Assembly (NCBI GenBank): GCA_003559395.1
Contig: PWLL01000097.1
Coordinates: 1 to 12,675, forward strand
Direction of reading: 5' to 3'
From: Candidatus Iainarchaeum sp.
GTDB lineage: Archaea; Iainarchaeota; Iainarchaeia; Iainarchaeales; CSSED10-239
Length of the DNA: 12,675 nt
The position numbers and the translations under genes were made by a program. The number at the start of each line of letters is the position of its first letter. Positions within the stretch are counted from its first letter, which is position 1. A model generated the notes under the pieces. It had not been told where the DNA came from and ran no database searches. It saw only the letters and a list, made by a program, of their open reading frames with translations. Shown here piece after piece: positions 8,542 to 12,675 of this stretch.

Positions 8542-11500
8542 CTAGGTTCTATAAACATCTAATAGCAACTTTGCTTTTTCTAAGATACCTTCTTTTGTCA
8601 TAAAATAAATGTATCTTATGTAGGTTGGTTCTCTTCTTTTATTTCCAAACTCTATATCTATGTGATTGTTGGTTATTCTTGCATACATGTTGTTAGTATC
8701 ATTAGAGAACATATCTTCAAGATCTTCATAAAATAATATTTGTTTTTGTTCTTTTGTTACAAAGTATTTTGGAGATGATGTTGAAACTAAAGAAACATCT
8801 TTATCATAGTGTACTCTTGTTTTTAATAATAAATCATCTTCACAAGAAGAGATGACTAAGGAGTTGTTGTCATAAGACAAAGTAAGTTCTGTCTCTCCTA
8901 TTGTGTAGAAGCTGTTGGGGTCTGACTGGTTGTTATATTCTGTTTTTATCCATTCTGGAGAGCGTGCAAGGTTTGAAATTTTTAAAGAATCTATAACTCC
9001 ATCAAATTGTCTGTTTGCTGTAGGATGATTTCCCATTCTTGAATCACTACCAGGAGTTCCTGCAATAAGGGTTGTTGACCCAAAATCAACCCCATCTTGA
9101 CTATCATAATTTCCATCTATATAAAAAATTCTTTTGCTGTTTGTATAATCTGTGATACCTACTATATAATACCATTCATCTTCATTAATTGTGCCAATAG
9201 ATGTAGATATTTGTGAACTGTCACCCACTTCGCTTCTTCCAGAAATTAATATTTCGTTATTTGAGGTTATTCTAAAAGTAAATCCAACAAATGATGAGTT
9301 TATATATTCGAACCAGATATAATTTTCGTTAATAAATTCATTTCCTTTTATCCATGCTGAGACCATAATTGCAGAAGTTCCATCTAATATTGAAAGTATG
9401 GTATTTTGTCCTAAACTAACATAATCATTACTTCCGTCATACTCTTGAGCTTTTCCAATAACTCCATCTACTTCTGTTGGTTCGTTAACCGCTTTTTTTG
9501 TTCCATGACTTTCAAAAGAAGTGCTGTCTTTTATTGTTGTTGCATTATAATCGTCTTTATGCCAAACACCAACATACCTGTTACTCCAAACATTATGTGT
9601 TCCATATTCGTGATCTTCTGGATAATCTTCTAAAGAAGGAGAACCATAATAAACATAAAAACTAGTATCTTCATCATATTTAAGAACATCTGCTTTAAAC
9701 CAGACTTCTCCAGTATTTGCATTTGTATCAATATTTACTATTTCTCTGGGAAGTTCTGTTAAATTTTGATTAGTAATTCTTATATCTCCACCATCATCTT
9801 TAACATTTTCAAAAAAAGATTCAGGAAATAAACTTAAATCAAGATATACAGGAAAATCTGTTATATGTGTAGTTCCATCTACTTTTTCTTTATCTATAGT
9901 TATTTTTATTCTGTTTTGTATATCTTGTATTTCACAAAAGTTTTCTTCTTGAGTGTTTTCTTTAAATAAAGAAAAAGAAACTGTGTTGTTTTGATCATCT
10001 TCTAAAAATATTTTTTTACATGATTTTGTTTCTAGTTTTGTGTCTTCTAAATCTCCTATTGTGTAGAAGCTTAAAGGAGTTGATTGGTTGTTATATTCTG
10101 TTTTTATCCAATTGTTTGTTCTTGGAATTGATGACATTCTTGCAAAATCTATACTTCCATTTAAGTAATATGTTTCTAAAGAACCATATCTTCCAAATCT
10201 TCTATCTGAAAAAGAACTAGCTAATGTACCTGTTACTTCTTGTTCTCCAACATATGTTCCATTGATATATCCTTTTTTGATAAGCCCATCAAAAGTAAAT
10301 CCTACGTAATGCCATTCTCCATCAATTAATCCAGTGCCGTGATTTGATACAAATCTACCATCTGTTGTTACTACACCTACTCTTATTCCTCCGGCAGCAG
10401 GAATACTTATTTCTAAAGAATGTGGCCCTAAAATTATATGATATCCCCCTGGCGGCACACCATTTGCTTTAAACCATCCAAATGCAGATACTTGAGTATT
10501 ATATCCTAAATCATTTGGCAAATCAATATAATCGTCTTGCCCATCATATTCTTGTGCTTTTCCAAGAACTCCTTCTACTTCTGTTGGTTCGTCAATTGCT
10601 TTTTTTGTACCATGATTTTCAAAAGAAGTACTGTCTTTTATTGTTGTAGCATCATAATCATCTTTATGCCAAACACCAACATACCCGTTACTCCAAACAT
10701 TATGTGTCCCATAATCGTGATTGTCTGGATAATCTTCTAATAAAGGATTATTAAAATAAACATAAAATATTGTATCTTCATCATACTTAAGAACATCTGC
10801 CTTAAACCAAACTTCTCCAGTATTTGTATCTGTATCAATATTTACTATTTCTCTAGGAAGTTCTTTTATATTTTGATTAGTTATTCTTATATCTCCACCA
10901 TCATCTTTAACATTTTCAAAAAAAGATGCAGGAAATGAACTAAGATCAAGAAATACAGGGAAATCTGTTATATGTGCATTTCCATCTACTTTTGCATGAT
11001 CAATAGTTATTTTTATTCTGTTGTTTGCTATTAAGTAATCAGAACAATCTTCTTCATTTATTGTTACAGAAAAATCATTAACATCAACAGAAAGATCATC
11101 TTCCTTTGATTTATATGTCCAAAACTCTGTAGTTGATGGAAATAAAACACTTCTTAATAAATTGTTTTCATTTCTTATAAAATAGAATGGTTCGTTATCA
11201 GTGTTAGTTGTTAATATATTATCATTTGTAAATTCATAATTGATATTTTTATTTATTTTTTTAAGATTTGTATCTATCTTATTTTCATAAATATTAAATT
11301 TAAAATGTTCGCCAGAGATTTCTTTTTCTGTATAAAGTATTTCAAAAAAACTATTTACGTCTGATTGGTTGTTATATTCTGTTTTTATCCAATCTTCAGA
11401 TCTTGCAATAGTTGAAATTCTGGCTTCATCTATTGAACCATTAAAAAACCTAGAGCTTCTTCCACCACCAATTTGAATGTTTCCTGCTTGTGTTAGTTGT

Positions 11501-12675: not shown

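Follow-up and report, generated by a model that had tools for sequence, protein, structure and literature searches.

Large DUF2341 proteins encoded in archaeal type IV pilus loci (arCOG03508 etc.; the Methanococcus Epd pilus locus) have been proposed to act as pilus-tip adhesins (PMC4858521), and a DUF2341 gene of the Epd pilus locus emerged when M. maripaludis was screened for defects in transformation (PMC10133366). LamG-like jelly-roll proteins are expanded in DPANN archaea, where some of them are tied to type IV pili loci and genomic islands (Mia14, PMC5498576; Undinarchaeales, PMC7414124), and where their LamG domains are proposed to mediate host or cell contact (PMC5498576, PMC7414124). 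Recombining adhesin and surface-protein families are described for yeast (FLO adhesins, PMC3512402), Mycoplasma genitalium (MgPa/MgPar, PMC2169797) and the Thermococcales (a hypervariable Ig-domain module, PMC8416519). Here we analyse a giant gene from Candidatus Iainarchaeum sp. that joins DUF2341 and LamG in three repeated modules (designated M1, M2 and M3); it occupies one end of a 12,675-nt stretch of contig PWLL01000097.1, which in its full length is referred to below as the window.

Like the DUF2341 proteins of the pilus loci, the giant protein is a very large archaeal protein with DUF2341 whose gene lies near that of a FlaI-like ATPase; unlike them, it pairs each DUF2341 with a LamG_3 domain in a repeated module of ~330 aa, and mosaic cores are found in neither PMC4858521 nor PMC10133366. 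With the DPANN LamG expansions it shares the low-GC context of a small archaeon, the AT-rich window (25-31% GC) carrying genes for Sec61β and a type II methionine aminopeptidase, whereas the DPANN reports describe gene expansion rather than modules within one gene that combine a common scaffold with unrelated cores. We argue that the three modules are probably recombination mosaics, in which young shared DNA blocks surround three unrelated LamG_3 lineages.

Module layout of the giant gene

Counted from its first ATG, the open reading frame (ORF) of the giant gene occupies 8542..12561 on the minus strand and encodes 1339 aa (ORF list and translation). Between 12561 and 12675 there are no in-frame stops (NLWYDAEVSYNSNNIDIYFGYVDVNNYIKTEIRYNNLE precedes the first ATG), and as the frame is stop-free to base 12675, the gene is truncated at its 5' end by the window; further modules and a signal sequence may lie beyond this edge. 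Pfam recognised in the protein three Laminin_G_3 domains (PF13385; 171 bits in total) and three stretches of DUF2341 (PF10102; 52.9 bits against a gathering cut-off of 23.4, with the DUF2341 of the M1 piece scoring 27.8 bits alone). Laminin_G_3 follows directly after each DUF2341, and scored separately M1, M2 and M3 yield 85.7, 53.7 and 62.5 bits. The three modules (M1 aa 86-401, M2 aa 514-837, M3 aa 883-1223) can each be divided into a scaffold, a divergent core and a conserved tail:

8542..12675 (-): giant DUF2341/LamG gene; stop codon at 8542-8544, frame open to the window edge, 5' end outside the window
11824..12306 (-): M1 scaffold, aa 86-246; DUF2341 and the first four LamG strands, up to GKAQDYDG
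11443..11823 (-): M1 core, the divergent part of LamG, aa 247-373; 21% identical to the other two cores
11359..11442 (-): M1 conserved tail, aa 374-401; holds the final long strand of LamG and the WIKTEYNNQS helix
10537..11022 (-): M2 scaffold, aa 514-675; matches the M3 scaffold over 482 nt at 89.6%
10162..10536 (-): M2 core, the divergent part of LamG, aa 676-800; 22% identical to the core of M3
10051..10161 (-): M2 conserved tail, aa 801-837; similar in nucleotide sequence to the tails of M1 and M3
9430..9915 (-): M3 scaffold, aa 883-1044; 89.6% nucleotide identity to the M2 scaffold
8983..9429 (-): M3 divergent LamG core, aa 1045-1193; longest of the three cores
8893..8982 (-): M3 conserved tail, aa 1194-1223; matches to the other two tails

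The linkers and the C-terminal 116 aa (aa 402-513, 838-882 and 1224-1339) have no Pfam match and no mutual similarity. A simple tandem duplication of module plus linker was rejected, since the linkers are unrelated. In many homologues the linkers measure only ~10-25 aa, and those of the giant protein, together with its C-terminus, may therefore be extra small domains.

Conserved scaffolds enclose divergent LamG cores

The M2 and M3 scaffolds (~162 aa) are identical at 135 of 162 residues (83%), and nucleotide self-comparison aligned their DNA over 482 nt (10541-11022 against 9434-9915). The M1 scaffold shares 110/161 and 113/161 residues with those of M2 and M3 (about 68%), and its DNA (11822/11828-12306) matches theirs over about 485-491 nt at 79-80%. 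After the scaffold, the self-comparison found no nucleotide match among the modules over ~370-450 nt, beyond which similarity resumes in the tails over 59-72 nt at 82-86% (the M1 tail matches that of M2 over 72 nt at 82% and that of M3 over 61 nt at 85%); a 26-nt tail block, TGGATAAAAACAGAATATAACAACCA, which contains the minor codon pair AAC-AAC, is identical in M1, M2 and M3. The amino-acid identity of the cores among modules is 21-22% against a family background of 16±4%, and phmmer searches with one core left the sister cores undetected.

A first-pass annotation of this stretch had described near-identical DUF2341 scaffolds with strongly divergent LamG cores, and the observation is confirmed: its counts for the DUF2341 halves (101/121 between M2 and M3, 88/122 between M1 and M3) reproduce exactly, and the sharp switch that it placed within one domain is evident in sliding windows and in the nucleotide self-comparison as an abrupt fall and not as uniform divergence (from 0.75-0.95 to 0.07-0.33 amino-acid identity within ~20 residues for M2-M3). 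Its statement that the M3 core is the longer also stands; the bounds that it drew are better moved to aa 247-373, 676-800 and 1045-1193 (11443-11823, 10162-10536 and 8983-9429). The cores span about 125-149 aa, and for lengths of 123, 121 and 138 aa the M3 core is 15-17 aa longer than the other two. A two-breakpoint likelihood fit placed the left break of every pair just past GKAQ[DE]YDG, to within three codons (M1 aa 246, M2 aa 673-675, M3 aa 1042-1044). The right break is staggered among the pairs (373/800, 381/1194 and 818/1204), and mismatch is 0.53-0.61 inside the breakpoints against 0.13-0.24 outside (2ΔlnL 132-189).

Scaffolds and cores differ in age

The synonymous divergence (dS) of the scaffolds is 0.24 for M2-M3 and 0.50 for the M1 pairs, at a ratio of non-synonymous to synonymous divergence (dN/dS) of about 0.35-0.36, while that of the cores is saturated (dS at least 1.07, a value which at ~20% identity hinges on an uncertain alignment). 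As codon bias could mimic a low dS, the use of the same codon at identical residues was compared with the gene's own codon usage. The M2-M3 scaffolds show 113 same-codon residues where 80.6 are expected (z = 6.2) and the M1 pairs are likewise in excess (z = 3.5-3.7), whereas the cores have no same-codon excess at identical residues. Since low scaffold dS and same-codon excess are both missing from the cores, scaffolds and cores have different histories.

The contrast between scaffold and core exceeds what uneven constraint produces, and the two have different ages and nearest relatives. In the modules of orthologous or near-orthologous proteins (P0007/P0010, P0009/P0020) DUF2341 identities of 0.70-0.91 are accompanied by core identities of 0.47-0.74, against 0.83 with 0.22 in the giant gene, and in a plain tandem array (L002, from a gammaproteobacterial metagenome-assembled genome) similarity runs unbroken through the cores (3.4 kb at 74%). 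This bears on the possibility of an ancient triplication without recombination, after which purifying selection would have constrained the scaffold far more tightly than the core. Such a history would agree with the fact that even between unrelated proteins DUF2341 (0.37) and the LamG C-terminal strand (0.49) are more alike than the core (0.16), and with the old and stable pattern between module positions in Asgard homologues (DUF2341 0.57, core 0.20). We nonetheless consider it quite improbable: the scaffolds are at least as similar in nucleotides as in amino acids (89.6% vs 83%), their dS and same-codon excess are those given above, the minor codon pair AAC-AAC is common to all three modules within the 26-nt block, and scaffolds within the giant protein are 66-83% identical, against at most 49% for the closest scaffold in any other protein found.

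The divergent segment makes up most of the LamG fold

AlphaFold2 (AF2) models were obtained for the M2 (pLDDT 88.6, pTM 0.90) and M3 modules (pLDDT 85.6, pTM 0.89). Foldseek aligned ~210-240 of their residues with lectin-like jelly rolls (clostridial neurotoxin HCN, AbnA domain 4), from which it follows that the jelly roll begins at about module residue 105-120. Module residues ~105-330 resemble the clostridial neurotoxin HCN and the AbnA carbohydrate-binding domain 4 (E about 1e-9; TM 0.75 on AbnA domain 4) at a sequence identity of 12-19%, a resemblance of fold only that is silent on the ligand. A sequence search of the PDB with DUF2341 gave no solved relative and only a weak match of the LamG region to 4qvs. 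In BFVD, the viral proteins A0A516M692 and H9YT22 align with the complete model, both domains included, over 312-353 columns at a TM of 0.73-0.76 on the query, and the DUF2341+LamG unit therefore occurs in viruses too.

The first four jelly-roll strands (VGVWHKDD...GKAQEYDG) belong to the conserved scaffold side, as do the last long strand and the WIKTEYNNQS helix, so that the divergent segment comprises about 10 β-strands and takes in about 85% of the LamG_3 model of Pfam. The cores alone cover LamG_3 model positions ~5-126/137 of 151 (the M1 core with 61.7 bits, at positions 6-126 of 151; the M2 core with 40.8 bits); all three are intact LamG, each scoring alone against Pfam LamG_3, and AF2 is confident for M2 and M3. 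In the M3 model the extra length of the core consists of a short helix and longer loops.

The first-pass annotation had raised, beside cassette exchange, diversifying selection on the ligand-binding face, and the distribution of differences within the fold speaks against it. Variable positions were assessed by AF2 secondary-structure class (not on the three-dimensional surface), and inside the divergent segment identity is 26% and 21% in strands against 19% and 20% in coils; as the strands are as divergent as the loops, most of the domain appears to have been replaced and not its binding face diversified. In its explicit form, this explanation supposes a recent tandem duplication of whole modules followed by very fast divergence of the cores through point mutation. 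The youth of the scaffolds at the DNA level suits it, the surface lectin domains of a symbiont are plausible targets, and the apparent dN/dS of the cores (0.64-0.89 in two pairs) is higher than that of the scaffolds (0.36). Selection at the protein level, however, cannot saturate the synonymous sites of the cores next to scaffolds of dS 0.24-0.5; moreover, the M3 core is closer to cores of other organisms than to its sisters, the family's orthologous modules and its whole-gene paralogues reveal no intrinsically much faster evolution of cores than of scaffolds, and a tandem duplication is at odds with linkers that are unrelated too. We therefore find this explanation very hard to accept.

Relatives of the modules and of the window

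When the M3 core was searched exhaustively with HMMER, 28 proteins were returned at E <= 1e-10, with relatives 39-43% identical over the whole length. The best of them, the unrelated protein P0050, matches the whole core at 43% identity (103 bits; sister cores ~20%) and carries a full DUF2341+LamG module, which scores 241 bits to M3 against 108-109 bits to M1 and M2. Taken by segments, its DUF2341 is equally distant from M1, M2 and M3 (0.31-0.32), the identity of its LamG N-terminal strands is 0.60 to M3, 0.57 to M2 and 0.44 to M1, and its core is 0.40 identical to that of M3 against 0.17 and 0.22 for the other two. This pattern implies that the M3-type N-terminal strands are native with the M3-type core, and that M2 and M1 are therefore chimeras with foreign cores.

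For the giant protein as a whole the best matches are 31-37% identical, and no close orthologue was found in the GTDB genomes and JGI metagenomes scanned (at most 32% identity, except for one short segment at 42%). In exact protein look-ups the giant protein was unmatched (probably since the gene is truncated by the window), as was a 439-aa neighbour. The look-up of Sec61β led to an independent contig of 5.2 kb (L017; JGI sample 3300000563, contig SL_3KL_010_SEDDRAFT_10020744) that is 99.87% identical to window positions 3669-8910, and which stops at 8910, inside the M3 tail repeat and before the cores. It differs from the window at seven single nucleotides, three of them within the terminal 369 nt of the giant gene (Fisher p about 0.01), which hints at a higher strain-level polymorphism at the 3' end of this gene.

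The end of this contig within a repeat is what an assembly artefact might look like, in which repeats from several genes or strains had been joined into a chimeric gene, and repeats of 482 nt at 90% identity are hard for short-read assemblers. We give this explanation very little weight: the frame stays open through all junctions for 4.1 kb, each module is complete and modelled with high confidence, and the same architecture is present in dozens of independent assemblies. Furthermore, mis-joins could alter the order or number of modules but could not make three distinct cores between near-identical scaffolds.

LamG replacement in the wider family

A hidden Markov model (HMM) of the module recovered the ~330-aa unit in 49 homologues (Thermoplasmata, Asgard, Methanomicrobiales, bacteria of the Candidate Phyla Radiation (CPR), and others) and in 10 loci, most of the 49 homologues having 2-9 full modules. 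Within proteins, mean identity is 0.56 for DUF2341 and 0.20 for the cores, and among the modules of multi-module homologues the best match lies in the same protein for 41 of 62 scaffolds against 13 of 62 cores.

The replacement of LamG cassettes in a conserved DUF2341 scaffold recurs in Asgard homologues, for which we compared a set of three-module genes (L003, L004, L009, L010, L011 and L013). At the same module position, core identity in this set is bimodal (either 0.12-0.25 or 0.64-1.00), while DUF2341 identity is continuous. Gene a of L003 aligns with its orthologue in L009 over nt 1-575 at 91.7% and over nt 1218-3550 at 92.5%, with nothing alignable between them; the gap is a clean replacement of ~600 nt that comprises the LamG of module 1. 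Similar gaps interrupt four more Asgard gene pairs; the genes between which LamG has been cleanly replaced are otherwise 77-92% identical. Conversely, L004.m2 and L010.m2 have cores that are 96% identical on scaffolds that are only 70% identical. These genes resemble the giant gene in having the ~330-aa module three times, with scaffolds detectable at the nucleotide level and LamG parts that are not, and are 25-29% identical to the giant protein. They differ from it in showing no excess similarity between the modules of one gene: there is no concerted evolution in the set, DUF2341 identity between positions being 0.57 both within the same gene and across genes.

Two further arrangements were observed in these loci. 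Tandem pairs of paralogous three-module DUF2341-LamG genes are present in L003 (9830-17827 and 17899-23187) and L011 (1717-9636 and 9662-13681); they are 74-81% identical in nucleotides, the LamG of modules 1 and 2 being unalignable and module 3 colinear. The array of L002 (870-14330) is an ORF of ~13.4 kb with nine DUF2341-LamG modules at a period of ~1.4 kb, whose repeats are 70-74% identical through the cores.

Proposed mechanism and its direction

We propose that the giant gene encodes a large, probably cell-surface, lectin-like protein built of repeated modules, each consisting of a DUF2341 β-domain and a LamG/concanavalin-A-like jelly roll. The young shared blocks comprise ~486 nt on the 5' side (DUF2341 and four LamG strands) and ~60-100 nt on the 3' side (the last strand and the WIKTEYNNQS helix), and the ~370-450 nt between them represent the three unrelated LamG_3 lineages. 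Their juxtaposition is probably due to non-reciprocal homologous recombination anchored in the flanks, with GKAQEYDG on the left and NGSID...WIKTEYNNQS on the right. Cassette exchange, which the first-pass annotation had also suggested, gains support from the different histories of scaffolds and cores, from the relatives of the M3 core outside this genome and from the direct swaps in the Asgard homologues; its interpretation is thus partly supported.

Two directions fit the data about equally well. An M3-type module may have been copied and two of the cores later replaced, a course which is favoured by the Asgard swaps and to which we assign a likelihood somewhat short of even. Conversely, the scaffolds of three old modules may have been overwritten by gene conversion from the M3 type, as favoured by the unrelated linkers, which argue against simple tandem duplication; this we put forward as a tentative possibility, on the doubtful side.

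Several points weigh against recombination as the origin of the mosaic. A donor for the M1 or M2 core was not found, a word-index search of 5.8 billion proteins giving no word-sharing relative, and a silent cassette or second copy of any core is absent from the 12.7-kb window (as are out-of-frame or inverted core copies). No orthologue or strain variant covering the cores turned up in the collections searched, and no recombination event has been observed in this lineage. The unrelated inter-module linkers fit poorly with a simple history of duplication and replacement, and the sequence derives from a metagenome assembly in which the independent contig L017 breaks inside a repeat. The core dS has the dependence on alignment stated above, and a GENECONV-like permutation test on the longest identical run within the scaffold was not significant (p = 0.07, 0.42 and 0.37). 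Finally, the unit exchanged in the Asgard genes is the whole LamG domain (HMM positions ~120-312), in contrast to the sub-domain core of the giant gene (~170-297 of 312).

The search of the window for core copies also bears on a diversity-generating retroelement (DGR), or a similar targeted hypermutation, acting on the cores. DPANN archaea are known to carry DGRs that diversify surface proteins, a point in favour of such a system. We hold it to be scarcely credible for this gene, in view of the lack of a reverse transcriptase domain in any ORF of the window and of a template-repeat copy of any core within it; furthermore, the cores are of unequal length and cannot be aligned, which is not a pattern of differences at adenine-templated sites, and the substitution spectrum of the scaffolds is unbiased.

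Genomic neighbourhood

A FlaI-like ATPase gene and small ORFs with N-terminal hydrophobic segments lie 0.3-4.6 kb downstream of the giant gene on the same strand, with a convergent Sec61β gene in between:

8376..8540 (+): Sec61β, 54 aa, convergent with the giant gene; Pfam 37.8 bits, NCBIfam PRK01253 43.9 bits (below the 55-bit cut-off)
3934-8281 (-): candidate type-IV-pilus-like cluster; ATPase, small ORFs and a membrane-anchored protein
3934..6033 (-): FlaI-like secretion ATPase, 699 aa, extended at its N-terminus by a long lysine-rich stretch; T2SSE in Pfam, 325 bits against NF058587 (below cut-off)

The other ORFs of the candidate cluster encode a coiled-coil-like protein of 117 aa, two proteins of 164 and 120 aa with N-terminal hydrophobic segments, and a membrane-anchored protein of 308 aa; no FlaJ/TadC-like platform protein was recognised in the cluster within the window. 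Sec61β is an archaeal marker, and the neighbouring genes together point to an archaeon, probably of small genome. Because the convergent Sec61β gene lies between the two, the giant gene and the pilus-like cluster do not form one operon. In this respect the former stands apart from the DUF2341 genes of the pilus loci, and its link to a pilus is only putative.

Implications and comparison with known systems

The family annotation, read with the literature (PMC4858521, PMC5498576), suggests that the giant protein may present three different binding domains, and hence specificities, on one protein, and that it may serve as a putative adhesin, possibly together with the neighbouring type-IV-pilus-like genes. 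Few surface proteins of CPR bacteria or of archaea (DPANN, Asgard and others) are as large and as poorly understood as the giants of the DUF2341-LamG family, which have repeatedly been proposed as adhesins of cell-cell contact; LamG parts that behave as exchangeable cassettes would provide a concrete evolutionary mechanism for changing partner specificity. Moreover, the junctions of the natural chimeras (after GKAQEYDG, and before NGSID/WIKTEYNNQS) could guide domain-swap experiments, whereas trees of whole proteins and orthology calls for the DUF2341-LamG family will mislead.

A bolder idea, which we regard as unlikely, is that the flanks are the recombination anchors of a standing system of cassette exchange: the scaffolds would be fixed sockets, and the cores would be drawn from a LamG gene pool within and between genomes, re-targeting the recognition of hosts or partners in episymbiotic and Asgard archaea. 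If true, standing exchange of this kind would be an archaeal counterpart of the cassette switching of pilins or of phage receptor-binding proteins, and breakpoints inside a single jelly-roll fold would let the chimeric domains still fold. Set against cassette systems of the pilE/pilS and MgPa/MgPar type, the giant gene shares the conserved flanks around a divergent segment but has no silent donors in the 12.7-kb window. Among its Asgard relatives, related genomes do differ from one another by cassette.

In the full-text literature on DUF2341, or on DPANN and archaeal LamG with recombination, we found no description of the exchange of LamG cassettes on DUF2341 scaffolds. Recombinational mosaics in adhesins are already known, and what is new here is the exchange of LamG in a family that is common across archaea but has been little studied; the insight is incremental and at the level of the family, and does not amount to a new kind of system. 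Phage receptor-binding proteins are themselves mosaics, and like them and the FLO, MgPa/MgPar and Ig-module families, the giant gene has conserved flanks that would offer homology for the swapping of divergent binding segments. It differs from all of these in belonging to another family and fold, and in having its breakpoints inside one jelly-roll domain.

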